Positions 15,863 through 58,382 of a DNA stretch of 64,000 nucleotides are shown one piece after another. This DNA comes from an uncultured virus (IMG/VR IMGVR_UViG_3300020576_005736). Lineage: Duplodnaviria; Heunggongvirae; Uroviricota; Caudoviricetes. The position numbers were made by a program, and so were the translations under genes. A model generated the notes under the pieces. The model made no database searches. It was given only the letters and a program-made list of their open reading frames with translations, and had not been told where the DNA came from. Numbering within the stretch: position 1 is the stretch's first letter; each line of letters opens with the position of its first letter. The stretch lies in IMG/VR virus record IMGVR_UViG_3300020576_005736. The stretch is one strand, 5' to 3'.

Positions 15863-16165
15863 ATGACCGACGGCACACAGACGGTAGAACGCGGCGCGGC
15901 GGGTAAGGGCGCGGCGGTAGCCGCTCCAGAGCCCTCCACAGCCCCTCCAGCGGCCTCGAATAACCCGCCCGGTAGGTTAGTAGCGGCGGGGGCTTCGCCG
16001 CCTTCTACAGCTTTCCCAGCGGCTCCAGAGCCGGACGAGATCGACGTTATTGTTGATCGCTGGTTCTCTGTTACCTTCCCAGGATCTCCGGTTGCTCAGA
16101 CGACTGAGCAGTGGAACTTCCTGCACAGCGCAAAGGAGGAGTTGAAGAAGCTTCTTCCTCGGTAA
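15863..16165 (+). CDS. hypothetical protein (carries a dispersed repeat copy)
   Basis: GAGG RBS; Ala/Pro-rich N-half is encoded by the repeat. Confidence 0.55.
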   Translation: MTDGTQTVERGAAGKGAAVAAPEPSTAPPAASNNPPGRLVAAGASPPSTAFPAAPEPDEIDVIVDRWFSVTFPGSPVAQTTEQWNFLHSAKEELKKLLPR

Positions 16166-17551: not shown

Positions 17552-20500
17552 ATGTCCTCTGACGTGCATGTCTCGTTTGACGGAGACACGCGAGCACTCC
17601 GTGAGCAAGTGGATGCTGCTCGCAGATCTGTCGCCGAGGCTCTCGGCAAGATGAAAGACAGTGCAGAAACAGCAAACCCCGCTATTGCTCAACTGCAGAG
17701 AAGCCTTGACAAATTGTCTGAGTCCTCGGAGAGAACTGCAGAATCAACGTCCACACTTCTGACGTATCAGAACTGGGCTTTTGTCCTGTCTGTTGCATCT
17801 GCAGCAACTACAGTGATGACCAGTACAGTTCGAGGGCTCTACAGTGGTACTACTATTGCGGCTGGGGGGATTGCGGCTGCTGCAACAAAGACAGCAGATC
17901 TGACATCTGAGATGCTTGCGTACACTCGGTCTCAGGCGTATCTTGCGCAGTATCTACCGGTCGTGAGAGTGGAGAATGACGGACTGATAGCGTCGATTGG
18001 TCGTGCATCCATCGCGTGGAATAGCTACTGGAAGTCCGTGGAGATCGTGAAGTCCGGTCTTCTTGGTACGGTGGGAAGTGCTGTCGCAGCGTCGGGAGGT
18101 ATGGAACGACTCAGCAATACCGCTCGTCAGAGCAATTTTGACAATGCAACGCGGGCAATCCAGGCGTACCTCGATCAACTCTTCCGTATTCCAAGCATGA
18201 CAAATGAGGCTGCATCATCCATTGTTGCCTCTTTTAGTAGTATTCCTAATTCATCTGCCCAGATGATACAGGTTCTTGTCGACGTGACGGCTCAGCTGTC
18301 CACCAGCAAGGAGCAGGCTCAGAGCCTTGCTGAACAGCTGACCCGTGCCATGTCGGATCCAGCGACTAGCGGAGAGGCATTTCTAACGAGTCAGAAGGAC
18401 ATCACGGCTGAGCTCCTGAAGCAGTTTGACGCAGCAAAGCGCAGCGGCAACGTGAGCGAAATGCAGTCCGCCATTCTTCAGGAGATGATCGTCAAAGAGC
18501 GATCGATGTTGGATGAGAAGACGAGAGCTCTCAGGGAGCAACTGAAGACTCTTTCTGAGATAGGACTGCTCGGTCGAGTACTGTCAGGATCGTACAAGAC
18601 GCAGGTTGAGGAAGCAAACAAGGCGCTGGATGCAATCAACAAACAGGTAACTGCTCTTGACGCAGCGTCCGCGCGACTTCGGCAGATGCCCACTGATATG
18701 AACCAGGCGGCTCTTGCCGCCAGGGGCATTGTGAACGAACTATCCCCGCTCACGTCGCAGCTTGAATCGATCAATGGCAAGCTCTCAACAATGAGGCAGG
18801 TATTCGGTGGATTTGGTGGTAACTTGAAGGGGACAACCGGGGATGTAAAGGAGTTAATCGCCCAATTTGAAGGTTTCAGAGAAAAGGCGTACTGGGATAA
18901 GAATGCATTTCGCGTTGGATACGGATCTGACACGACCACTCGTGCTGACGGAAGAGTTGAGCGGGTCACACAAGACACCATCGTCAGTCGTGAAGATGCT
19001 GAGCGCGATCTTGCTCGTCGTGTTGTTGAGTTCCAGAACGAGGCTGCTGCTAAGATTGGAGCGTCCTGGGATGGTCTCTCTGACAGAGCGAAGGCGTCGA
19101 TCACGTCCGTCGTCTATAACTACGGATCCACCTCCCCGGCTCTCGATAAGATGTACACGGCAGCTGGGACTGGTAGCGACAAACTCATTGCTGATGCTAT
19201 CCGTGAACTGAAGGCAAATCCTGATCGTCGGTACCAGGAGGCTGCGAACATCACTAATTCTCAACCAGGAGCCACATTGGCCTCTGGAATCCCAGCTACG
19301 CCTGCTGACATTGAGGCGATGGCACGTCTGAAGGACAATGCGCAAGGGGTTGCTGATGCTCTTCGCGGCGGTAATGAGGTTGCCCAGGCCCAGGCCCAGA
19401 TTCTGTCGCGTAATGCGGCCGGTCAGAAGGACTCGGTTCGTGATGCACAACAGCTTGTTGAGGCATGGAAGACAGACCTGGCGAACTCAAGCACTGCCAG
19501 TGCTCGACTCCAGATGCAGAACGGGTTGCGTGCTGCGCAAGTCTCTCTCGCGGAGAAGCTTCTTGAGGTTGACAAATCCAAGCTCGCTGTTTCTGGTGTA
19601 GATGATACCACGGCGAAGGAGAAGCTGGCGACTGCAAAGAAGATGTACGACATAGAGATGCGGGCAGCTGGTGATGACGTGGCGCTAAAGAATGCGGCAC
19701 TAGCGAAGAAGAAGTCTGCTGAGCAGTCCTATGAGACAGAGATAACAAAGATCGCCAAAGAAGCTGAGGATGTGAAGTACGCAATTGCTCAGGCTGGTCT
19801 GGAACAGAGAAAGGCGAAGCTGAGGGAGGACAAGGACCATCACATCATCAACGCTCAGCAGAAATTGGCTGCGGAGCTTCAGATAGAGGCTGAGCAGACA
19901 AGACTTGAGCAATCACACTATCAGAAGATCAAGAGCCTCGAGGAAGAAGGAACAGCTGAGTATCGTGCTGCTCAGAACAAGATGACCCTGATCGCGGCAG
20001 AGTCGGCAGCGAGGCGTCAGCAAATACTCTCTCAGGATGCGCGCAACATCCAGAGGAGTTACGATCGCGTGTTCAACCAGATTGGATCTACACTTACCTC
20101 ATCTATCATGGGGATGATCCAGGGAACATCAACCATTCGACAACTGTTCCAGAACCTGGCTCTACAAATTGTCCAGCTCTTCGTAAAGGCCGGGGTGGAC
20201 ATGGTGATGACATGGGGAGCAACCCAGGCCAGAATGCTGATGCAGACCGTGACTGGTCAGGCGAGTCAGACAGCTGCGGTTACAGCCGGAGCATCAGCTA
20301 AGGTGGCTGCCCAGACAACCGGAGCGGTCACTGGAGCTGCTGTGGAGAAGACTGCAGCTCTCACCACGATTTCTACTGATGCTGCAAAGGCCGCTGCTGG
20401 TGCCTATTCATCCGTTGTTGGTATCCCGATCATTGGTCCAGTACTCGCTCCAGCTGCTGCTGCTGTTGCTTATGGTGCAGTGGCTGCATTCGGATCGTTC

Positions 20501-22275: not shown

Positions 22276-22380
22276 CTTACTCTCCAGAGGCGCGCGGGCG
22301 GGCGCGGCGGGTTTAGGGCGGCTAGGTAGCCTTTCCAGAGCGCTCCAGCGGTCTGTGGAGGCTGTCAGTAGGGGCGGGCG

Positions 22381-22617
22381 CTACCCGTATAGCGGCGCGG
22401 GCGCGGCGGGTTCCTGTGAGGATGGTATAAAGTTCGGAGGGAGAAGATTCTTCGGAATTGTGAGATAGGTTGTAGGATTGGATCCGTACATCTGAGAATA
22501 AACCCACATCTTTCTTCTCTGACGCATCTCACTCGTTTTGTCACTCATCTGTAGTGACGTGTATTCCTCGACGGTCACCTTCACAAGATCTGGCATTTCG
22601 ACTACAGCCTGGCTCAT
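22381..22617 (-). CDS. hypothetical protein
   Basis: AAGGAG RBS and upstream TATACT. Confidence 0.5.
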   Translation of the reverse strand: MSQAVVEMPDLVKVTVEEYTSLQMSDKTSEMRQRRKMWVYSQMYGSNPTTYLTIPKNLLPPNFIPSSQEPAAPAPLYG

Positions 22618-24494: not shown

Positions 24495-24569
24495 GCTGGA
24501 GTAGCTCAGTGGTAGAGCAGCCGCCTTGTAAGCGGCAGGTCGTCGGTTCAAGTCCGACCTCCAGCACCA
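24495..24569 (+). tRNA. tRNA-Thr(TGT)
   Basis: Cloverleaf GCTGGAG/CTCCAGC acceptor, anticodon loop CTTGTAA, GGTTCAA T-loop, CCA. Confidence 0.9.
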
Positions 24570-24571
24570 AC

Positions 24572-24648
24572 GTCCACCTAGCTCAACTGGACAGAGCATG
24601 GGGCTTCTATCCCTGTGGTTGCAGGTTCGAGTCCTGCGGTGGACGCCA
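24572..24648 (+). tRNA. tRNA-Arg(TCT)
   Basis: GTCCACC/GGTGGAC acceptor, loop CTTCTAT, GGTTCGA, CCA. Confidence 0.9.
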
Positions 24649-24652
24649 CTAT

Positions 24653-24729
24653 CTGTGCATAGCTCAGCTTGGTAGAGCGCCTGGTTTGGGTCCAGGAGGT
24701 CGTCGGTTCAAGTCCGGCTGCACAGACCA
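24653..24729 (+). tRNA. tRNA-Pro(TGG)
   Basis: CTGTGCA/TGCACAG acceptor, CCTGG-TTTGGGT-CCAGG, CCA. Confidence 0.9.
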
Positions 24730-29493: not shown

Positions 29494-29745
29494 CGCCTCG
29501 GCGTCGACGTCGGATGGCGTCACCTGCAATGACCTGGCTGCGGAGTCGGCCTACGTCGAAAGTGGTGAGACTGGGCAGGCTCTGCCCACCGATTTCGAGT
29601 CACCTGCGCTGCTATACTGTCCCGTCAGTTGTGCAAAAGTGGTGAGCTAGAGCGCTGCTCTCTCCTCCTGGCGGCGGAGTGGGTGGTCTCCATACCTCCC
29701 TGTGGAGACCACCCTGCCGCCCCAAGCGCCCGCCAGGAGCTTCAC

Positions 29746-30759
29746 ATGCAACAGATCAAGAACTTCTTTGCGTATGCCACAGAGCGTCACGCAATCTATC
29801 TTCGCAGACAGATGGGCATCCCCAAGTCTGAGCTGACCGAAGATCCCATTCTTCAGACCTATCGATTCTGCAATGTTTTCCGTGAGCTGGACACGACGAC
29901 CATCTGGCTGAGAAAGCACGTCCGTGATCCACTTCGTGACAAGCCAGAGGTTCTTCTGGCCACTGTTCTGTTTCGCTGGTTCAATCGCATCCAGACAGGA
30001 GAGGCGATCTTTAAGCAGACTTATCATGTTGGATCAAGCGTGTCCAACTGGACAGCATGGGATCAGCTTCTTGAGATCGGTGAAGTCAGTGACATTCGTC
30101 ATTCTGTTCTGGCATATTGCGGAAAGGGTCCGTATGTCACTGGATCCTACATCATCAAGACACCTGACGGAAAGAACAAGCTCGATGGTGTTCTCTGGTG
30201 CGTCGAGCAGTTCATGAAGCTCGAGAAGACCATTGGTCGACTTGACTCTGATGCTGACGCCAACGATCTAGACTGGCGCGAGGTTGCTCGAGTGTGCCTC
30301 GAGCATCCAGGAACTGTCTCACTGGAAACGGTGTGGGACTGGCTGCGTCAGTTCCCGTATCTGGGTGACTTCATGGCTTACGAGATCGTCACTGATCTTC
30401 GCCACACGGTTCTTCTCGACAGAGCTCCTGACATCATGACCTGGGCCAATCCTGGTCCTGGAGCCATGCGTGGTCTGAACCGAATTTACGGTCGTGATCT
30501 CGACAAGAAGCTGCAGAAGCATGTCTACATTAGAGAGATGCAGGATCTGCTGAAGTATGCGAGTGTCTCTGCACTGTGGCCTCAGTGGAACGGTCAGGCA
30601 TACATATTCTCGGATCGCGTTCCGGGAGATATGGATGCTTGGCAGCCAGAGGCATGGCCTGAGTGGGACATGCGAACTGTCGAGCACACTCTCTGTGAGT
30701 TCGACAAGTATGAGCGAGTTCGACTCGGTCAGGGCGCTCCGCGTCAGAAGTTCAGGTAG
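29746..30759 (+). CDS. 5-hmdU DNA kinase (aGPT-Pplase1 family)
   Basis: ERHAIYLRR..G.P...TEDPILQTYRFCNVFRELD, LFRWFN, LGDFMAYEIVTDL, GPGA.RGL, EHTLCEFDKY.R. Confidence 0.85.
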   Translation: MQQIKNFFAYATERHAIYLRRQMGIPKSELTEDPILQTYRFCNVFRELDTTTIWLRKHVRDPLRDKPEVLLATVLFRWFNRIQTGEAIFKQTYHVGSSVSNWTAWDQLLEIGEVSDIRHSVLAYCGKGPYVTGSYIIKTPDGKNKLDGVLWCVEQFMKLEKTIGRLDSDADANDLDWREVARVCLEHPGTVSLETVWDWLRQFPYLGDFMAYEIVTDLRHTVLLDRAPDIMTWANPGPGAMRGLNRIYGRDLDKKLQKHVYIREMQDLLKYASVSALWPQWNGQAYIFSDRVPGDMDAWQPEAWPEWDMRTVEHTLCEFDKYERVRLGQGAPRQKFR

Positions 30760-30770
30760 AGGAGAGAAGA

Positions 30771-31100
30771 ATGTTCGACTATAAGACATATGCAGATCAC
30801 AATGGACGAAATCCGTCGCACGTTCCTGGTGGATACACTCGTCATATTGAGGTTCCGATCGATCCGAAGAACCTACTTCTGGGAACCCGTCGGGTCTACG
30901 TTCGTCCCCGGAACCCCTCTCGCTGGCTTCCTCACGTTGGAGGCTCTCTCGCTGGTCCTCGGATCAATCCTCCTGTCGCAGAGATCGTGACTCGTCAGCA
31001 GCGTCGATATGCTGAGCGTATGGAGGCTGAGCGTCTTCGTCGCGAGGAGAACGCCCGAGTTCACTCTGCTCATCGCAGATCTCGTCGGAGGGCAGCATGA
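30771..31100 (+). CDS. hypothetical protein
   Basis: GAGGAG RBS, ATGA overlap with the next gene. Confidence 0.6.
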   Translation: MFDYKTYADHNGRNPSHVPGGYTRHIEVPIDPKNLLLGTRRVYVRPRNPSRWLPHVGGSLAGPRINPPVAEIVTRQQRRYAERMEAERLRREENARVHSAHRRSRRRAA

Positions 31101-31561
31101 GTGTTCTCAGCGGAAAGTCTCTCTGGAAGATTCGACCTCTTGAACCTATGGTCGAGAGGCAGAGGCACGAGTTGACCGGAACCAGCTTCGGCGTCTCGAT
31201 GTGTGGATACGACATTCGACTGGACCAGGAGATTGTTCTTCCTCCAGGTCGCACCGTTCTGGCTTCCACTCTCGAGAAGTTCACGATGCCTCTGGACGTC
31301 GTCGGCATCGTCCACGACAAGAGCACATGGGCACGTCGCGGCATCTCTGTGCAGAACACCGTGATCGAGCCAGGATGGTCAGGCTACCTGACTCTTGAGC
31401 TTCTCTACTCCCCGCTCCGGGTTCTCGCGACTGACGGGATGAGGCTGTCGAGAGGTACGCCCATCGCTCAGGTTCTGTTTCATCGCGTTGATGAAGAGAC
31501 TGAGGGCTACGGTGACGGCAAGTACGCGAATCAAGAAAGAGGTCCACAGGAGGCAAGATGA
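31097..31561 (+). CDS. dcd: dCTP deaminase/dUTPase family
   Basis: GYDIRL, KSTWARRG, IEPGWSGYLTLEL, IAQ, Y.GKY..Q. Confidence 0.85.
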   Translation: MSVLSGKSLWKIRPLEPMVERQRHELTGTSFGVSMCGYDIRLDQEIVLPPGRTVLASTLEKFTMPLDVVGIVHDKSTWARRGISVQNTVIEPGWSGYLTLELLYSPLRVLATDGMRLSRGTPIAQVLFHRVDEETEGYGDGKYANQERGPQEAR

Positions 31562-32044: not shown

Positions 32045-32662
32045 ATGATAATCGTCTGGCTTCCTTATCCAAATCTTCGACTGTCGGTCCACGTTCTGGA
32101 CTCACAGATTCTTGGTGTGCAGATATCACAGTGTCTGCATATTCTCAGCATGATCGCTGGTCACAGAGAGGGAGGACGAAACAAGTATCACTCGACCACT
32201 CTGTCCTGGCATCACAATCCGTCAGCACTTGCACTCTACACAGAGTATGCTCTCCAAGAGATGTCGCTGCGTGGTCAGGACAGAGGACTTCCCTCTCCCC
32301 GTTCTCGTGAGGGAAGAAAGCTGTATGACTTTCCAGCAGAGTGGGCCGAAGAGGATCCGCTGATGCCTGAGTGGCTGGGACTTGAGAGAATTCATGCTTC
32401 TCACCGTGCTGCTCTGCTGAAGAAGGATATCGGGTGGTACTCTCAGTTTGCGTGGCACGAGACTCCTGTCCTCAATCTTCAGTGGCCAGGGAAGATGCCA
32501 AGAGTTGGTGACTCAGTAGTGAGTAAGACCGGGGAGGTGTGTATCGTACACTCTTTCGACAGTAGCCGAAGGCCAGTTCTCGTCCAGAAGGGCGAGCTGG
32601 TTCCTGTTGATCGAGTTGCGGTGTACAGTGGAGAATGGCGCCGATGCGTCGTTGTTGAATAA
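32045..32662 (+). CDS. pyrimidine-dimer glycosylase-like (MSMEG_6728-type) protein, divergent
   Basis: WLPYP...S..VLD..LG.Q, P.WLG...IHASHRAALL.KD...Y. Confidence 0.65.
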   Translation: MIIVWLPYPNLRLSVHVLDSQILGVQISQCLHILSMIAGHREGGRNKYHSTTLSWHHNPSALALYTEYALQEMSLRGQDRGLPSPRSREGRKLYDFPAEWAEEDPLMPEWLGLERIHASHRAALLKKDIGWYSQFAWHETPVLNLQWPGKMPRVGDSVVSKTGEVCIVHSFDSSRRPVLVQKGELVPVDRVAVYSGEWRRCVVVE

Positions 32663-32674
32663 GAGGAGAGAGAC

Positions 32675-33724
32675 ATGCAAACGATCTACGCACGAAATGT
32701 GAACGTCGCCTATCGGGCAGGGCTGCGACTTCTGAAGAATCACGGTGTTGTGTCACCTTCTCGAGCAGGTAACGTGCTCGTCATGGACACGCCAGTGATG
32801 ACTGTCTACGCCTGTCCGCAGGAGCGTGTTCTGTTTGACGCATCGCGCGACGCCAATCCGTTCTTCCACGTGATGGAGTCTGTCTGGATGCTGGCTGGCT
32901 CCAAGGATGGAACCTGGCTGGACCGATACGTGTCCAACTTCTCCTCGCGATTTGCAGAGACAGGTGGTGACATTCACGGTGCCTATGGGTTCCGCTGGCG
33001 TAGCCACTTTGATCTCGAGGGTGGTGGAGATGAGCTTCTTCCTGACCAGATCCTGACCGTCGGCAAGATGCTGTTCGAGGACTTCAATACTCGGCGTGCT
33101 GTTCTCACCATGTGGGATCCTGTGGCCGATCTCGGAGTCAATACCAAGGACATGCCTTGCAACACTCACGTCTACTTTCGTGGTCGCATGATCGATGACG
33201 GTCGTCGTGTTCTCGACATCACTGTGTGCAATCGCTCAAACGATGCTATCTGGGGTGCGTACGGAGCGAATGCTGTACACATGTCCGTTATGGGCGAGGT
33301 AGTCGCAGGTCTGGCTGGTGTCGAGATCGGTCTGTACTACCAGATGAGCAACAACTTCCATGCGTACACTGAAGTCTTCGACAAGATCATCTCAAAGCCT
33401 ATTGAGTCTGTCGATGACTACGCGACGACCACCTCTCTCCCGATTATCGTTGGGGATACACCGGAGGCTCGCCGAAATTGTGCTCTCCAGATTCTCGCTG
33501 ACGCAGCGAAGTTCATTGAACTTCGTGATATCTCTCACGTTACTCGTGGACAGTTCGAGACTCAGTGGTTCAACGAGGTCGTTCTTCCGATGTCTCGTGC
33601 ACACGATCTCTGGAAGAGAGGATCTCGAGAAGATGCCATGGATGACGTTCGGTGGGTTCGCTCTCCTGACTGGCAGCGTGCCTGTCTTGAGTGGATGGGT
33701 CGTCGAATGAAGAAGGCTATCTGA
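32675..33724 (+). CDS. thymidylate synthase homologue, probable dUMP hydroxymethylase
   Basis: RDANPFFH, GAYG.RWR, TRRAVL.MWDP, D.PCN, NRSND..WG..GAN, NFHAY; next to the hmdU kinase. Confidence 0.85.
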   Translation: MQTIYARNVNVAYRAGLRLLKNHGVVSPSRAGNVLVMDTPVMTVYACPQERVLFDASRDANPFFHVMESVWMLAGSKDGTWLDRYVSNFSSRFAETGGDIHGAYGFRWRSHFDLEGGGDELLPDQILTVGKMLFEDFNTRRAVLTMWDPVADLGVNTKDMPCNTHVYFRGRMIDDGRRVLDITVCNRSNDAIWGAYGANAVHMSVMGEVVAGLAGVEIGLYYQMSNNFHAYTEVFDKIISKPIESVDDYATTTSLPIIVGDTPEARRNCALQILADAAKFIELRDISHVTRGQFETQWFNEVVLPMSRAHDLWKRGSREDAMDDVRWVRSPDWQRACLEWMGRRMKKAI

Positions 33725-34936: not shown

Positions 34937-35463
34937 CTACAAATGCTAACCGACGTCAGATTGGCGGTACTCACTACAAGACAGGAAGTGGATTCGAGCA
35001 CTGGGATCTCATCTCTCAGTTCGGCATCGGATATCTTGAGGGATGCGCAACGAAGTATGTTGCCAGAGCTCGCCTCAAGAACGGTCGTCAGGATCTTGAC
35101 AAAGCTGTTCACTTCGTCGAGAAACTCATCGAGCTGGCTCGTCTTGGCGATATCCCTGTTCCTCCTATGGGTCATGCCAGTGATGCAAGTCTCTGGAACT
35201 TTGCATCGGCCCAGCAGCTGACCGGTCTGGAGTCTTCGATCATCACGTCTCTGTGCCAGTGGAGAACTGTCTCTGATCTTGAGAACGTCCTGAAGCTCCT
35301 GAACACACTGGTCTCTAACATGACGCTCCAGGAGCGCGAGGCTGAGAAGAAGGATCCATTTCGAGAATCAGCTCGAGTCTGGCCCGACTATTCTCCAAGA
35401 CCAGGAACACCAGAGGACGGCGGACACTACGCTCGTCAGCAAGAAGAGGATGACGGAGCATGA
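34933..35463 (+). CDS. DUF3310-like (nucleotide kinase-associated) protein
   Basis: QIGGTHYK, EG.ATKY..R...KNG.QDL.KA. Confidence 0.75.
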   Translation: MTTNANRRQIGGTHYKTGSGFEHWDLISQFGIGYLEGCATKYVARARLKNGRQDLDKAVHFVEKLIELARLGDIPVPPMGHASDASLWNFASAQQLTGLESSIITSLCQWRTVSDLENVLKLLNTLVSNMTLQEREAEKKDPFRESARVWPDYSPRPGTPEDGGHYARQQEEDDGA

Positions 35464-36287
35464 TCCCGCGTATCTATGTCCCATCACGTGGTCGCGCTGA
35501 CGATCGTCTGCTGCGCGGCCCATCTGTTCAGGCTCCTCATGGTACTGACGTCGTCTACGTCGTTGGTCCAGACGAGATCGCCAAGTACTCAGTCGCCATC
35601 CTGAGGAACGGTCTCCCCGCTCGTGTCGTCTCCTGCGAGCACCAGCCGAATATCTCAGCTGTTCGCTGGTGGATTGGCCTTCATGCTCAGAAGGACGGTC
35701 TCGACAGGTTCGTCATCATGGACGACGATGTCGGTCTTCTGGTCCGAAAGGCCGACGACAACTGGCAACTTCGAGGAGCAGAGAAGGACGACGTGCAGCA
35801 GATGCTGCAGTGGATGTGGTCTGAGCTTGACAGAAGCCAGAATGTTGGCATCTCTCCTCGTGAGGGAAATAATCGGGTCGGCGTCGGCAACTCCGCAGAA
35901 CTGACTCAGTACAATACTCGTGCAATGAGAGTGCAGGGCTTCCAGACGGAGGCCTTCCTTGCATGCGAGCACGGCCGAGTTCGAGTTATGGAGGACTTCG
36001 ACATCTCTCTGCAGATTCTCGCTGCTGGAGGGCAGATTGCCGTCAACTACTTCTGGGCTCAGGGTCAGAGAATGACAAATGAGTCTGGAGGATGCTCCGA
36101 GTGGCGAACTCACGAGATCCACGAGGCCTCTGCACGAAGACTAGCTGAGCTTCATCCTGGAATTGTCACTCTCCGTCAGAAGAGCAACAAGACAGACAAG
36201 GATGGATTCGGCACTCGTACTGAGGTCACTATCCAGTGGAAGCGTGCCTATCTGGAGGGTCAGAAGCATGCAAAACCAGCGGGATAG
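35460..36287 (+). CDS. GT-A fold glycosyltransferase, TET/JBP-associated (TAGT/GREB1-like) type
   Basis: IYVPSRGR, FVIMDDD, EDFD..LQ.L..G, N.SGGC motifs; inside the modification operon. Confidence 0.7.
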   Translation: MIPRIYVPSRGRADDRLLRGPSVQAPHGTDVVYVVGPDEIAKYSVAILRNGLPARVVSCEHQPNISAVRWWIGLHAQKDGLDRFVIMDDDVGLLVRKADDNWQLRGAEKDDVQQMLQWMWSELDRSQNVGISPREGNNRVGVGNSAELTQYNTRAMRVQGFQTEAFLACEHGRVRVMEDFDISLQILAAGGQIAVNYFWAQGQRMTNESGGCSEWRTHEIHEASARRLAELHPGIVTLRQKSNKTDKDGFGTRTEVTIQWKRAYLEGQKHAKPAG

Positions 36288-43459: not shown

Positions 43460-43592
43460 CTTAATTCCAAGGCTCGTGGAAAGCCCTAGCGGGCGGGGCG
43501 CTACTAGGGTAGCGGGCGGGTATTCGAAGCCCCTCCAGGGGGCTCTGGAGGGGCTCTGGAGGGGTTACGGGCGGGCGGTTATAGCCGCGCCG

Positions 43593-43934
43593 CTACGCGG
43601 GACGCTCTGCAGTAAACGCAGAGTTAGCTGCATTCACGACAGAGGACGGATGACGAAGGCTGATGTTCTGAGACATCAGAGCCGAGACCTGCTGAGACAG
43701 CACAGTCACCGAGGTCGACAGTCGAGCCTCGGACTCAGACAGAATCGAGTTGTGACGCTTCAGTTCCTCATTGTACTGTCTGGCGTAGGTCAGCTCTTGA
43801 GAGAATCGGTCTCCCCGGTCCTCGGCAGCCTTGAGGTGAGTCGTGAGAAGCTCGACCTCGGCAGTCTTGGTCTCGAGAAGCTTGCGGAGCTCAGCGATCT
43901 GAGCATCTTTGGGATCAGTCTTTCTGGTAGCCAC
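43593..43934 (-). CDS. coiled-coil hypothetical protein
   Basis: AGGAG RBS, GTG start, heptad pattern. Confidence 0.55.
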   Translation of the reverse strand: MATRKTDPKDAQIAELRKLLETKTAEVELLTTHLKAAEDRGDRFSQELTYARQYNEELKRHNSILSESEARLSTSVTVLSQQVSALMSQNISLRHPSSVVNAANSAFTAERPA

Positions 43935-52230: not shown

Positions 52231-52371
52231 CTATCGGTAGAGTGAGTGATGACACACGTCGTATGAGTGAGTCTCGAGACACCGAGCCATCGCATCACGG
52301 TCGGACAGACCGGACAGACAGACCCAGACGATGAGGAGCAGCGCTCCTCCGAGCAGTATGCGATCGGTCAT
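52231..52371 (-). CDS. small secreted/membrane protein (46 aa)
   Basis: GGAGGAG RBS; MTDRILLGGALLLIVWVC... Confidence 0.45.
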   Translation of the reverse strand: MTDRILLGGALLLIVWVCLSGLSDRDAMARCLETHSYDVCHHSLYR

Positions 52372-52565
52372 CTCTTCTCCTCCGCTGAGAACCACAGGCA
52401 GTCCTCAGACTCACTGAACCACTGAACCACCTTCGGACGATACTTCTCATCGATCTTCAGATGAATCTCATTCGGGTTGTCCTGACGGACGTTCTCCGCA
52501 CGGATCTTTCGTTTAATGAGCTGAGCGTTCACCGCATGGGACGGTGCCTTCGCGATCACAAGCAT
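52368..52565 (-). CDS. hypothetical protein within a direct-repeat-bounded insert
   Basis: GAGGA RBS. Confidence 0.5.
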   Translation of the reverse strand: MLVIAKAPSHAVNAQLIKRKIRAENVRQDNPNEIHLKIDEKYRPKVVQWFSESEDCLWFSAEEKR

Positions 52566-52694
52566 GGTGTGGTTCCTCGTTAGCCTCAGCTCACCGTCGG
52601 GTGATCTGGTGCTGGTTGCTGCGCGTGGTGCGCCTTGGTCAGAGCATAATCGCTCACGGATAGGGCGGCGCTCGTCCGAGCAGTATGCGATCGG

Positions 52695-53015
52695 TCATTT
52701 CTCCACCTCCGCAGTACGACGCCAGACTCGAACACCAGGGGTCGGAGGGTGCTCCTTCCCGTCGTCAGTCCACGACTCGGTGGTCTGCTTCGTGATGAGG
52801 AAGTACAGGATCCTTCCGCTCTGCCGGAACTGTACTGCCCGGACGCTGATGCGTCGCTGGAGGACGGCAGGAGAACAGTTGTACGCTGACGCTGGTACGA
52901 AGAAGGAGTCGCCCTCTTCCAGTGCACAGATGACCTCCGACAGATCGGAGGTGCCCCGAGAGCCGGAGCTTCGACCAGTGGGTACAGGGATATTCTTCTG
53001 AATCGTGATGCTCAT
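52695..53015 (-). CDS. putative small DNA-binding protein
   Basis: IQKNIPVP...LEEGDSFFVP...GVRVWR motif. Confidence 0.6.
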   Translation of the reverse strand: MSITIQKNIPVPTGRSSGSRGTSDLSEVICALEEGDSFFVPASAYNCSPAVLQRRISVRAVQFRQSGRILYFLITKQTTESWTDDGKEHPPTPGVRVWRRTAEVEK

Positions 53016-53428
53016 GACAGACCTCCTGAGAAGATGAACGTGGTGAGGGCACCCCCCTCCTGGAACCAACAGTCCGTGAAAGACACGATAGTGATGTCTT
53101 GGTACGAATACTTCACCATCTCCACAATGCAGCCAGTCTCCTTGTTCTCCCAGATCACCGTTTTGCTCGACTTCGGGGCCTCCGCGAAGATCGTCCGAAC
53201 CATCGCTCCGACCAGCCACCCCATCTCACGAAAGTCATCCTCCTCGCTCTCCGAGAAGAAGATAGCCGCTCTTCCAGGGAGTCTGCGTACAGTATCCTCC
53301 CACTGGTCCAGATCGAACTCCTTGCGGAACTCGGCCACGGACTGAGGAAGTCCGTCCGGAGATGCCATCTTGATCACCTCGTCTAGGGCATGGCTGAATG
53401 AGGGAAGAAGAACAGTTGCTTTGGTCAT
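53012..53428 (-). CDS. hypothetical protein
   Basis: First gene after the 53513 promoter (alternative start 53482). Confidence 0.55.
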   Translation of the reverse strand: MTKATVLLPSFSHALDEVIKMASPDGLPQSVAEFRKEFDLDQWEDTVRRLPGRAAIFFSESEEDDFREMGWLVGAMVRTIFAEAPKSSKTVIWENKETGCIVEMVKYSYQDITIVSFTDCWFQEGGALTTFIFSGGLS

Positions 53429-53512
53429 CACAGATTCTCCGAGCTCTTCTTGAGAATAACGTAGTTCATCAGTACCTCCCATAGTGCTAGTTAGCTATAC
53501 GCTAATAAACTT

Positions 53513-53541
53513 ATTATACGTATAGCCTAAACGCAAGTAAA
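53513..53541 (-). promoter_or_regulatory. TTTACT-N17-TATAAT promoter
   Basis: Consensus -10 with TTTACT -35. Confidence 0.75.
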
Positions 53542-53611
53542 GCGGTATTTTACGATGAGCGACCGGCGGAGCTCGCACGGAGCGACGAAAACCCCACCCG
53601 GACGAATCGGG

Positions 53612-53697
53612 CGGAGCGACGGACAAAGAGGACACGGAGCGACGGACAAAGAGGACACGGAGCGACGGACAAAGAGGACACGGAGCGACGGACAAAG
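53612..53697 (+). repeat. 23-bp tandem repeat x~3.7
   Basis: Unit CGGAGCGACGGACAAAGAGGACA, with no T on the + strand. Confidence 0.9.
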
Positions 53698-53712
53698 TAC
53701 CGACGCGCGAAA

Positions 53713-53740
53713 GCCGCCCTAGGGCAGACCCTAGGGCGGC
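53713..53740 (-). terminator. hairpin downstream of the 51-aa ORF
   Basis: GCCGCCCTAGGG-CAGA-CCCTAGGGCGGC, followed by TTT on the minus strand. Confidence 0.55.
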
Positions 53741-53759
53741 CAGCGGAGAGGATAGCGGA

Positions 53760-53915
53760 CTAGGCCAAGTAGCCGGCGGACCGAAGCCACGTAGCCGTAG
53801 CCGCAAGGCGACGCGCCCGAGCGGCGGCGCGGCGCGCAGGGACGGACGGACAAACGCGGACGGGCACACCGGCGCAAGCGAATACAAGGTAGCGGCGGAG
53901 AGCGGACTTAGACAT
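53760..53915 (-). CDS. 51-aa basic protein with no D/E/H/Q (not in ORF track)
   Basis: MSKSALRRYLVFACAGVPVRVCPSVPARRAAARARRLAATATWLRSAGYLA; same TAGGGGTTA-NNN-ATG RBS as the upstream gene. Confidence 0.6.
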   Translation of the reverse strand: MSKSALRRYLVFACAGVPVRVCPSVPARRAAARARRLAATATWLRSAGYLA

Positions 53916-53999
53916 AGATAACCCCTAAGAAAGAATAGGATATAAGCGGTAAAGCTAGGCGGGGTAGCCCGCCTAGCGCGTAGCGCGTAGCGCGTAGCG

Positions 54000-54299
54000 C
54001 TACCCTACCAAAAGGTAGCCCTTACGTATATCGTATAAAAAATCGGCCCGGTTAGCGCCGTTTTTTACCGCTAGCGCTTGGGCTAGCGTAAACGGGGCGG
54101 CGGGGTAAAGCGCGTAGCGCGCGTAGGCGGCGCTACCGGGTTTTTTGGGGTTAGGCGTAACCGCCGTTACGGTTACGGTTAGCGGCGCGCCGCCTACGTA
54201 GGCGGTAGGGTTACGCGGCGCTACCGCGTTAGCTACCGGCGGTAGCGTAGCGGCGGTAGGCGTAGCGGCGGTAGGCGTAGCGGCGGTAGCGTTAGGCAT
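54000..54299 (-). CDS. NPKKPGS-domain protein encoded almost without TG/TC/CA/GA
   Basis: PNPKKPGSAAYARYALY...ADFLYDIRKGYL; homology to four paralogues supports it being a real gene. Confidence 0.8.
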   Translation of the reverse strand: MPNATAATPTAATPTAATLPPVANAVAPRNPTAYVGGAPLTVTVTAVTPNPKKPGSAAYARYALYPAAPFTLAQALAVKNGANRADFLYDIRKGYLLVG

Positions 54300-54383
54300 T
54301 TGTAACCCCTAGTTAGCCCCTAGCGGGGCGGGTAGCCCCTAGCGGGGCGGGTAGGGCTAGCTACCTAGCTAACCCTTAAACTA

Positions 54384-54412
54384 ACCTTATACCCTAGCCC
54401 CTAGCCCGTAAA
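54384..54412 (-). promoter_or_regulatory. TTTACG-N17-TAAGGT promoter for the island gene
   Basis: TTTAC family, with AT-rich upstream sequence. Confidence 0.6.
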
Positions 54413-55089
54413 GTTATTTAATACTTATGGTATACTACGGCTAAACTATAGCTATACTTTACTAGGTTTTTTTACCTAGTAACTATACTTATATTAGGTA
54501 TAATACCCTAAATGGTTACTACGCTATACTACTATTAGCCTTTAGTATAATATACTAAAGTATTAGCCGCCCGTATAGGGCTAGGTATACGGTGGTGGTC
54601 GGTCGGACCGTGGCTAATTCACGTGTTTCCAGGTCACTCTTCTGACAATATCTGACACAGCTGCTGGGTGGGATCCTGGCAATCTCTCTGTCCAGCTTCT
54701 CGCATACAAGCATTGTTCTCTCCTGCTCTCTGTCCCGACTATACAGTACCACCGTCTCGTAGTATAGGCGCTACGCGGGCGGCGGTAGTAGGGCGGCTGC
54801 GAGGTAGCTGGGGACCGCTGGGAGGGTCGCTGGAGCCTGTGGTAGCGGGCGGCGGTAGTAGGGCGCGGGGCGGCGGCTAAGGCGGTCCTGTGAGGATGGG
54901 AGGGGCGCGGCTATAGGGCATCTGACATTGACGACTGAGTGGTTATTCTGTCATCAGGATGAGGTTAGGGTATGGAGGGCTGGGGACAGAGAGCGGCGCA
55001 GCCCGAACCTCGTACACATGACGTGAGTCCTCATGCAGAGATCAGTATTACGTCACCAATAGTTTAAGCGCGCACCCTATTAGCACCCT

Positions 55090-55427
55090 TAATAGGTGCA
55101 TATGTACAGCTAACCCCTTGTAATATAAGGACTTTTCAGCCCTCGCGTACGCACGCCTATATACGTGTCGCAGGTAAAAAATTTTCGTGCCGCCAGAAAA
55201 TAGACGACTAATATTCGTAATAAGCCAATAACACTCTTATATTTCAATAACTTAGATCCTATTAGTCCGCCTATTACGCCTTTCCAGAGGTTCCGATCTA
55301 ATAGCTTTTTACGTGGATCTGAATAATCGGGGAGGGCGTAGCTGTTCAAGATTACGAGATACTTGCTCACATGACGTATATATGCGCGCGTGGGGGATTG
55401 TGCCAGAACTCCTCCCCGGCTATACTT
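55090..55427. repeat. AT-rich element, inverted homologue of 22641-22950
   Basis: GCAGGTAAAAAATTTT, GTAATAAGCCAATAA, TCGGGGAGGGCG, CTCACATGACGT, CTCCCCGGCTATAC. Confidence 0.7.
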
Positions 55428-55448
55428 GTCTGAAAGTAGGAGGATCTC

Positions 55449-56271: not shown

Positions 56272-56799
56272 GTGAGCGATTCAGGTACATTTATCGAGAG
56301 CGCGAAGGGAGGACCAGGTGGCTGGGGTCCCGAGCGGCTCTCCAAGATTCCTGAGTACAAGCTCCAGATCGTGGAGCTTATCGCCTCTGGTCTGTTCGTC
56401 TCCGAGATCTGCCAGCAGATCGGTATCACCCCACCCACGGTCCGCAAGTGGCGAGCCGAGGACAAAGAGTTCGACGAAGCCTACACTGACGCAGAGGCTC
56501 AGGTCACTGACACTCTGGAGAAGGAGGCGATCCGTCGAGCTCGGAACGGTGTCCTCGAGCCTGTGGTCTCTGGTGGCAAGGTCGTCATGGACCCAGCCAA
56601 TCCAGGAGAGGTACTCCAGGTTCGTCGCTACAGCGACGGACTTATGCAGTTCCTTCTCAAGGGTCGTCGTCGCGACGTCTACGGAGACAAGCGCGAGGTC
56701 GAGGCGAAGGTCGGTATCGATGTCGTCGGAGCCAAGTCCTCTCTGGAGGCCAAGTTCGCGGCTGCCGCAGCCGCTATAAGCGAAGGATCCGGAGAATGA
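56272..56799 (+). CDS. terS: terminase small subunit
   Basis: HTH N-terminus; LEKEAIRRA..G, RYSD.L..FLLK motifs; upstream of terL. Confidence 0.8.
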   Translation: MSDSGTFIESAKGGPGGWGPERLSKIPEYKLQIVELIASGLFVSEICQQIGITPPTVRKWRAEDKEFDEAYTDAEAQVTDTLEKEAIRRARNGVLEPVVSGGKVVMDPANPGEVLQVRRYSDGLMQFLLKGRRRDVYGDKREVEAKVGIDVVGAKSSLEAKFAAAAAAISEGSGE

Positions 56800-57008: not shown

Positions 57009-58382
57009 ATGCTCACAGCAGCCACGCTTCGCAAACTCCCGGCTGCTGCGCGTAGCGACTTCTTCTCGTCTCTATCGGACGAGGAGGCTGCTGTCCTCAT
57101 GTTCGACTGGAACTTCTGGGCTCGACACGACCAGAAGATGCCCGATGCTCTCCTGGACACGTCCAGTCCTATCGTTACATGGCTCGCTCTGGCTGGTCGC
57201 GGCTGGGGCAAGACACGTGTTGGCTCTCAGGCTCTCATTGACGAGGTCTACCATGCCAGAGCTGGACGCATTGCTCTTATTGCAGAGACTGCAGCTGACG
57301 CTCGCGACGTCATTGTGGAGGGCGACTCTGGCATTCTGGCTTGCTCACCTCCCTGGTTCCGACCAGCGTACGAGCCGTCCAAGCGACGACTCACCTGGCC
57401 GAACGGAGCTTTGGCCTTCACGTTCAACGCTGTAGAGCCAGACCAGCTTCGCGGTCCGCAGTTCGACTTTGCCTGGGGAGACGAGCTTGCTAAGTGGCGC
57501 TATGCTCAGGAGACTTTTGATAATCTCCAGTTTGGTCTTCGTCTTGGGCGTCGTCCTCGACAGATCTTCACGACCACTCCTCGACCGATCAAGATCGTCA
57601 GAGAGATGGTCAACGACCCCACAGTATTTGTCACGCGTGGGCGCACACTCGACAATGCGGACAACCTGGCAGCGAGCTTCCTTGCTCAGGTGAAGCGCAA
57701 GTACGAGGGGACACGTCTCGGCCGACAAGAGCTCGAGGCAGAGATCCTTCTCGACACTCCAGGTGCTCTGTGGACGAGGTCTATGCTAGAGGCTGCGTAC
57801 CTGAAGCCTCTGGAGACTGAGGTGTTTCCAGCACACATGTTTTCTCGAATAGTGGTTGCCATCGATCCGGCAGTCTCCAACGAGGAGGGGTCGGACGAGA
57901 CGGGCATTGTTGTTGCAGGTATTCGTGCTAGCGACGATCATGTAGTCGTGATCGACGACCAGAGCGGAAGATACTCCCCAACAGAGTGGGCTCAGAAGGC
58001 TGTCTTCCTGTTCAGGAAGTTCTCTGCAGACCGAATCGTGGCAGAGGTGAATCAGGGCGGTGACATGGTTGAGACGACCATTCGCATGATCGACCCGAAC
58101 GCTCCATACAAGAGCGTCCATGCCAGTAAGGGCAAGGTCACTAGAGCAGAGCCTGTCTCTGCTCTGTACGAGAAGGGATGGGTCCATCACATGGGGTCAT
58201 TTCCTATTCTAGAGGACCAGATGTCCCAGTTTGCCAGAGACTTCGACAAGAAGATCATGGGGTTCTCGCCTGACAGGGTTGATGCTCTGGTCTGGGCGAT
58301 CACTGAGCTGAAGATCGACATAGGCGACGGAACTGCCATCATCGACTTCTATCGGAAGCAGACTGAGGGAAAAGAGATATGA
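57009..58382 (+). CDS. terL: terminase large subunit
   Basis: AGRGWGKT, LRGPQF...DELAKW, TTTP, VAIDPA, E.NQGG, SPDRVDALVWA. Confidence 0.95.
   Translation: MLTAATLRKLPAAARSDFFSSLSDEEAAVLMFDWNFWARHDQKMPDALLDTSSPIVTWLALAGRGWGKTRVGSQALIDEVYHARAGRIALIAETAADARDVIVEGDSGILACSPPWFRPAYEPSKRRLTWPNGALAFTFNAVEPDQLRGPQFDFAWGDELAKWRYAQETFDNLQFGLRLGRRPRQIFTTTPRPIKIVREMVNDPTVFVTRGRTLDNADNLAASFLAQVKRKYEGTRLGRQELEAEILLDTPGALWTRSMLEAAYLKPLETEVFPAHMFSRIVVAIDPAVSNEEGSDETGIVVAGIRASDDHVVVIDDQSGRYSPTEWAQKAVFLFRKFSADRIVAEVNQGGDMVETTIRMIDPNAPYKSVHASKGKVTRAEPVSALYEKGWVHHMGSFPILEDQMSQFARDFDKKIMGFSPDRVDALVWAITELKIDIGDGTAIIDFYRKQTEGKEI

Follow-up and report, generated by a model that had tools for sequence, protein, structure and literature searches.

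A strand-specific gap in TG and TC dinucleotides beside a conserved gene of a tailed phage that encodes a 5-hmdU DNA kinase

Genes and features of the locus

We analysed a window of 64,000 nt, meaning the whole stretch of DNA under study, which is a tailed-phage genome with its own contig of 64,842 bp. A Pfam scan of 72 ORFs identified a portal protein, the small terminase (56272-56799), the large terminase (57009-58382) and a family A DNA polymerase. At 24495-24729 the window carries a group of three neighbouring tRNA genes, Thr-TGT, Arg-TCT and Pro-TGG. The main genes with a predicted role in thymine modification are the following:

29629-30759, plus strand: 5-hmdU DNA kinase, 5-HMUDK (PF18723, E 3.6e-43, above the curated cut-off; phrog_2396, E 3.6e-64)
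31097-31561: putative supply enzyme of the dCTP deaminase/dUTPase type (PF22769)
32045-32662: Pyr_excise-like protein, in the modification cluster
32675-33724: thymidylate-synthase homologue, a putative supply enzyme of the dUMP hydroxymethylase type (PF00303)
35460-36287: TAGT (TET-associated-type) glycosyltransferase, in the modification cluster

The kinase is 37-45% identical to the kinases of PhiJL001, PaMx11 and M6. The 5-hmdU supply enzymes also have a PHROG match (phrog_5131, E 8e-94). According to Pfam, the modification set further contains an HD phosphohydrolase and a DUF3310 nucleotide-kinase-like protein, and the PHROG assignments concur with the set. No Pfam match to aGPT-Pplase or an amino-acid:DNA transferase was found among the 72 ORFs scanned; with a TAGT glycosyltransferase present and aGPT-Pplase not detected, this phage may end up with another modified base than M6, PaMx11 and ViI. 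Concerning the sequence context of such modification, the relevant sections of three articles can be compared. Lee et al. 2018 described the conversion as sequence-specific, the exact motifs being not known at that time (PMC5889632). Flodman et al. 2019, who tested more than 200 restriction enzymes on phage DNA, reported hypermodified T at TG or TC in M6, ViI and phiW-14 and attributed this specificity to the 5-hmdU DNA kinase (PMC6449724). In a 2026 study of SH-Ab 15599, TG is given as preferred over TC, with TT and TA far lower (PMC13458397). The original prediction for this locus had started from a modified T; the encoded kinase and putative supply enzymes, together with the published TG/TC context of the kinase family, agree with that premise.

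The features of the locus are presented below, from left to right:

53481-53554, minus strand: TA-rich patch of 74 nt (GC 0.34) with at most one TG/TC/CA/GA step per 45-nt window
53541 to 53513, minus strand: promoter-like TTTACT-17-TATAAT, before the next leftward gene (53482 to 53012)
53557-53689, minus strand only: six copies of GTCGCTC within 133 nt
53608-54031, plus strand: the longest run without TG or TC on that strand in the window (424 nt)
53609-53940: strand-asymmetric zone (about 330 nt), the plus strand without TG/TC and with T nearly absent, the minus strand dense in TG/TC
53612-53697: 23-bp tandem repeat, 3.7 copies with 100% matches, the unit being without T on the plus strand
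53713-53740, minus strand: perfect hairpin (from folding; 12-bp stem, 4-nt loop), then TTT only
53760-53915, minus strand: ORF51, 51 aa, function not assigned, which may be translated
53913-53927, minus strand: start context of ORF51, TAGGGGTTA-TCT-ATG, identical to that of the island gene at 54297-54311
53940-54606: island clean on both strands (about 660 bp), GA-free for 667 nt, with TG, TC, CA and GA nearly absent
53954-53977, minus strand: second hairpin, between the island gene and ORF51
54000-54299, minus strand: island gene, 99 aa, conserved and recoded with respect to TG/TC/CA/GA
54380-54606: AT-rich core with TATAMT boxes, seven on the plus strand and one on the minus strand
54590-54606, plus strand: right border motif CGGTGGTGGTCGGTCGG, conserved in four lineage members

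Using the terminase and the island gene as queries, three lineage relatives were found in IMG/VR. The lineage includes G003 (64,858 bp, complete, kinase-bearing), G002 (a 22,982-bp fragment) and, as fourth member, the L108/L140 contig, which ends at the island gene, the zone lying outside it. In a three-way alignment the island gene is 71% identical to the G002 copy and 60% to the G003 copy, and ten additional relatives of it were found. These relatives have H, D, E and Q where the window copy has Y, K or N, and therefore the island gene is taken to have been recoded under constraint. The avoidance is broken at six places in the gene (M1, the P51|K52 junction, Q74, D86, D90 and L97), two of which, D86 and D90, are invariant among the relatives. 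Pfam and PHROG searches returned nothing for the island gene or ORF51. The predicted model of the island protein has a pLDDT of 77; Foldseek with this model against the PDB gave nothing at E<=0.001, and VIA-align gave only matches of Z<=5, among which winged-helix domains are frequent, a lead at most.

Several repeats are also found in the island. The 5' part of the gene contains a 15-nt in-frame tandem repeat (3.6 copies, 54237-54289) which encodes TAATP repeats, a 7-nt repeat, CGCGTAG (4.4 copies, 53970-54000), follows the stop codon, and short repeats containing GTAG or CTAG are abundant throughout. The right border motif, written as CGGTGGTSGTCGGTCGG, is located at 54590-54606 in the window, at about 3887-3912 in L002 and at about 3943-3968 in L003; in a pattern scan for it, 21 of the 24 loci were unrelated coding DNA. 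The approximately 840 bp to the right of the island (54607-55448) contain no convincing gene. A groundwater variant differs over 53668-54612 by 20 substitutions and 3 gaps, and its sequence diverges, or is replaced, from 54612 (a 190-nt skip, with 55 other letters between). A physical genome end at 54619-54621, where the X2 contigs meet and the depth changes, was considered and judged too weak.

Strand-specific composition and its conservation

The original prediction had placed a plus strand without TG or TC at about 53609-54030, and the measured run (53608-54031) agrees with it almost to the nucleotide. All other plus-strand runs of at least 80 nt without TG or TC in the whole window are found within 54147-54593. 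GA is absent from the plus strand throughout 53940-54606, and CA is absent from both 54010-54297 and 54298-54606. The prediction that GA and CA would be dense in 53609-53940 also holds: the 200-nt window from 53561 contains 2 TG/TC on the plus strand against 43 on the minus strand. Genome-wide, the density of TG/TC is 15.4 per 100 nt per strand on average (sd 4.0); the minus strand of the zone, with 26 per 100 nt, is within the top 0.3% of all windows. The dinucleotide counts over 53608-54606 thus follow the predicted step from an island clean on both strands to a flank clean on the plus strand only, and the strand asymmetry is robust as an observation.

A sequencing or assembly artefact was rejected as the source of the pattern, because independent assemblies carry the same sequence: the zone and island are 100% identical in an independent virus record (G001, the nearest one, over 53480-54620) and in contigs from two sequencing runs. 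With 53400-54700 as blastn query, the phage collection returned no match, and a metagenome scan gave one locus, with 21 residues matched.

The asymmetry is conserved in position and polarity. In all three lineage genomes with data, the most asymmetric 200-nt window of the whole genome is located just downstream of the island gene, and its poor strand is the island-gene template in each. The TG/TC counts of these top windows, for which the sd of the strand difference is 8-9 in 200-nt windows, are:

Window: poor strand 2, rich strand 43
G003: poor strand 12, rich strand 52
G002: poor strand 1, rich strand 36

The clean region of the plus strand reaches 200-330 nt further left than that of the minus strand in all three genomes, and the DNA of the zone cannot be aligned between them. 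The island is softened in G002 and G003 (approximately 4-8 sites per 100 nt per strand, vs approximately 15), with the same one-sided flank. Absence of the asymmetry from relatives had been named beforehand as evidence against the prediction; the asymmetry occurs at the same place in G002 and G003. A second stretch of approximately 116 nt without TG/TC on both strands is present in G002 at 20356-20477, away from the main island.

The comparison set comprised six genomes: G004, a relative without the kinase, and five phages which carry it (PhiJL001, M6, PaMx11, CN1 and TM26). Genome scans found no island in any of these. Their top asymmetric windows always have at least 9 TG/TC on the poorer strand, and their longest single-strand run without TG/TC is 95 nt. 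The island and the asymmetry are specific to this lineage. Since G004 lacks both kinase and island, and five kinase-bearing phages lack the island, the kinase seems necessary but not sufficient for it.

Could such a pattern arise without any target? The zone sequence is largely non-conserved and its plus strand is 68% purine, as would fit a neutral polypurine/polypyrimidine tract or strand-biased mutation in weakly selected DNA. We consider this very improbable. The plus strand of the zone (A99, C90, G127, T16) has all 16 of its T's in TA (15) or TT (1), which goes beyond mere scarcity of T: every one of 200,000 composition-preserving mononucleotide shuffles contained TG/TC, and analytically the probability is 4e-8. 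Also, three genomes show the asymmetry at the same place and with the same polarity, as a genome-wide extreme in each, in DNA which cannot be aligned between them, and the sense strand has more C than G, the reverse of the outcome expected from deamination on the non-template strand.

It is scarcely probable that the avoidance is aimed elsewhere, at a nuclease of the host, at the sequence context of a deaminase or at a constraint on CA/GA in RNA. Such a target would be compatible with the five kinase-bearing phages without an island, and for this phage both the chemistry and the sequence context of modification are predictions. However, the avoided TG and TC and their complements are exactly the motif published for the kinase family, the kinase-less relative has no island, and the adjoining island is constrained on both strands, which argues for a DNA-level rather than an RNA-level cause. 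The footprint of a TC-specific deaminase was rejected, because it would leave TG/CA in place and does not explain their loss. As the avoided dinucleotides are the published motif plus its complement and the kinase is encoded, the island and zone are read as DNA without self-modification sites. From gene content and dinucleotide counts we infer that the zone is a one-strand gap in the sites of the phage's own thymidine hypermodification, and a link of the asymmetry and island to this hypermodification is likely.

Seven more intergenic patches of 45-51 nt have at most one TG/TC/CA/GA step each (15881-15925, 15959-16004, 22286-22336, 22366-22415, 43478-43526, 43560-43606 and 54839-54889); no such patch arose in any of 20 Markov simulations. 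The seven are G-rich (GCGGGCGGGCG, GGTAGC), some match a four-tract quadruplex pattern, and they alternate with a palindromic motif family (CTCCAGAG / GGCTCTGGAGGGG).

ORF51, hairpin and repeats of the asymmetric zone

The 51-aa ORF had been predicted from the letters as a minus-strand peptide without D, E, H or Q which freely uses Cys, Trp and TCN Ser, and this description is confirmed (TCN Ser four times, Cys twice, Trp once). The start context which it was said to share with the island gene is exact: TAGGGGTTA-NNN-ATG occurs exactly twice in the window, both times on the minus strand, with 0.02 expected by chance, and thus gives ORF51 a ribosome-binding start context in common with the island gene. 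Its start is the sole ATG on the sense strand of the zone, by codon usage its frame scores higher than the other two (+0.105 per codon vs -0.135 and -0.367, though below the 0.22-0.62 of eight comparison genes), and an ORF of 51-52 aa is present at the same place in each of three relatives. All of this favours the idea that the asymmetry arises secondarily from the coding of a basic peptide with a function, such as an arginine-rich factor with RNA polymerase or RNA hairpins as its target. We nevertheless regard this idea as quite improbable.

No homologue of ORF51 other than itself was found among 5.8 billion proteins, and BLASTP against the ORFs at the same place in G002 and G003 gave E values of 9 and 0.38, the G003 ORF being a different, hydrophobic peptide. 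The Smith-Waterman score against the G002 ORF is 53, reached by 1 of 2000 shuffles, but an off-frame pair scores 49. Over the 36 aligned codons the mismatches are distributed 18/18/22 by codon position, without third-position bias, and therefore give no sign of purifying selection. Because the sense strand is A-poor and stops are rare, all three sense frames are largely open, one of them without any stop. A strand of C, G and T without CA or GA encodes mainly R, A, P, G, L, V, S, C, W and F, so the basic character of ORF51 follows from the constraint and is no explanation of it. Moreover, the strongest asymmetry in G002 is located over the terminator and repeats, not over the ORF, and TAGGGGYTA is also a repeated motif of the island. 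The odds that ORF51 is translated are roughly even. The original prediction that the basic peptide is an anti-stalling or host-takeover factor is unsupported, given the missing homologues, the codon-position pattern and a composition which the constraint accounts for.

The perfect hairpin predicted to follow ORF51 was recovered by folding (-34.2 kcal/mol for 53713-53740 in a 66-nt context, z -4.1; none of 200 shuffles folds as well). A scan for intrinsic terminators with a U-tract of at least 5 after the stem returned no site, the hairpin being followed by TTT only; at the equivalent place G002 has a canonical terminator, a hairpin followed by TTTTT. A terminator-like hairpin which is oriented leftward after the ORF, with a canonical counterpart in G002, is consistent with the leftward transcription that the original prediction assumed. 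In Rfam, with E values up to 1 admitted, the sole match was a snoRNA, attributed to chance.

The repeats on the left of the hairpin suggest another function for the zone, and this is the main rival to template reading: iterons, hairpin and AT-rich patch would form a replication origin or protein-binding array with sites that carry T on one strand only, and the asymmetry would serve initiator, primase or packaging proteins rather than transcription. The 3.7 perfect copies of the 23-bp unit and the six one-strand copies of GTCGCTC within 133 nt adjoin the 74-nt patch of GC 0.34, so that direct repeats lie beside an AT-rich region, as looked for in an origin. G002 has its own repeat array, and the 7-mer GTCGCTC is common to its repeat unit and the array of the window. 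In all three genomes GTCG arrays point outward from the island (minus strand on the left flank, plus strand on the right flank), and on the left flank the density of GTCG is 6-10 times that of the genome; also, the clean run covers the repeats beyond the hairpin. On the other hand, G003 is asymmetric without long iterons and its zone is mostly an ORF, no initiator gene is named by this explanation, and the cumulative GC skew tracks gene orientation and marks no origin. Overall we judge an origin or binding array somewhat unlikely.

The contigs of all four sequencing runs break at the 23-bp repeat (53612-53697). Another direct repeat, of 45 nt with 4 mismatches, is found among the small leftward genes (52341-52385 and 52668-52712); it also appears as a 'goes back' joint in four of four sequencing runs.

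Template-strand reading and comparison with known systems

The explanation we favour, with a probability of about 0.4, is that the template must be unmodified for a polymerase moving leftward, probably the host RNA polymerase as it reads an early unit. The phage would replace T by 5-hydroxymethyl-dU, and its kinase would mark those in TG/TC for further decoration. The plus strand, having nearly no TG/TC from approximately 54600 leftward to 53608, would stay ordinary DNA, and it is the template for any polymerase moving leftward. The minus strand is clean only to 53940; beyond that point it would be among the most densely modifiable DNA of the genome. This suggests that the machine which reads the clean strand cannot tolerate the decorated base. 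The likeliest reader would be the host RNA polymerase, transcribing a short early leftward unit (island gene, ORF51 and hairpin) from an incoming, fully modified genome; a primer-making polymerase for replication would be a second possibility.

One article bears directly on the strand dependence. There, bulky or charged 5-substituted uracils inhibit T7 RNA polymerase when located in the template strand, and their presence in the other strand is tolerated; the authors also report that bulky groups keep bacterial polymerases from recognising promoters, and they term the transcriptional role of thymidine hypermodification underexplored (PMC11550810). By analogy it is plausible that, as originally proposed, RNA polymerase is blocked by modified T chiefly when this is in the template.

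Template reading is favoured by the restriction of the plus-strand T's to TA and TT in the zone, the clean island-gene template in all three genomes, the leftward hairpin with its T5-bearing counterpart in G002, and the lack of an island in the kinase-less G004. Several observations stand against it. In 38 other genes TG/TC is equally frequent on both strands (coding 16.1 vs template 15.9 per 100 nt), and therefore the polymerase must read modifiable templates elsewhere. The unit of G003 runs into TG/TC-rich genes without a terminator, and the clean plus-strand run of the window continues for 105 nt past the hairpin, over repeats resembling protein-binding sites. Of the -10-like boxes in the AT-rich core, seven face right and one faces left, and a leftward promoter was not located. 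PhiJL001, M6, PaMx11, CN1 and TM26 carry the kinase yet have no island, and the clean non-template strand over the island gene is left unaccounted for.

An extended form of this explanation, which we consider rather unlikely, treats the density of hypermodification per strand as a device for transcriptional polarity and timing. Canonical DNA would provide a landing strip on which the host RNA polymerase could start on the incoming genome, and only the first unit would have a clean template. Further on, the start of modified template might act as a one-way barrier, or else the heavily modified opposite strand might do so. This barrier would be a prokaryotic counterpart of base-J-linked termination, and ORF51 could be an arginine-rich, N-like factor relieving it.

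Thymidine hypermodification has been studied as a shield against restriction, and very little work has addressed what it costs the phage in transactions on its own DNA. The locus is a natural experiment in this respect: the motif is purged from 660 bp even by recoding a conserved protein, the flank is purged on one strand, and in relatives the purge has gone only part of the way. The locus supports TG/TC specificity with independent evidence from genomes, hints at a process that reads one strand and is affected by the modified base, and identifies exact templates for assays of hemi-modified transcription or replication.

Concerning known systems, the 5-HMUDK pathways (M6, ViI, phiW-14, PaMx11 and SH-Ab 15599) combine, as here, a kinase with 5-hmdU supply, and their target context in the sections cited above is the set of dinucleotides avoided here; the scans showed neither the island nor the strand gap in the five kinase-bearing genomes. 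Among the articles searched (main texts), no description was found of an island without the phage's own modification motif, or of a strand-specific version.

Three further systems resemble parts of the locus. The pL-N-tL1 unit of lambda is a short immediate-early leftward unit, ended by a terminator, with a small arginine-rich, poorly conserved ORF and small GC hairpins in its leader. Its layout is similar to that of the island gene, ORF51 and hairpin, but the likeness goes no further: the sequences are not similar, a boxA/boxB motif was not identified here, and the arginine richness of ORF51 comes from composition. Origins of the ori-lambda type have about four direct repeats of approximately 20 bp beside an AT-rich stretch, a layout which is alike, whereas the repeats here are without dyad symmetry and are not conserved in G003. 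Base J (glucosyl-hydroxymethyluracil) of kinetoplastids is a bulky derivative of 5-hmU linked to stop sites of RNA polymerase; it belongs to a eukaryotic Pol II system, and termination by modification in this phage would be an analogy to it.

Finally, avoidance of restriction or methylation sites and unmethylated CpG islands at promoters are known phenomena, which share with this locus a local shift in how often a modification target occurs in regulatory DNA. Here, by contrast, the motif is the phage's own putative modification site and is absent rather than retained, a protein gene has been recoded in keeping with this, and one of the flanks lacks the motif on a single strand.
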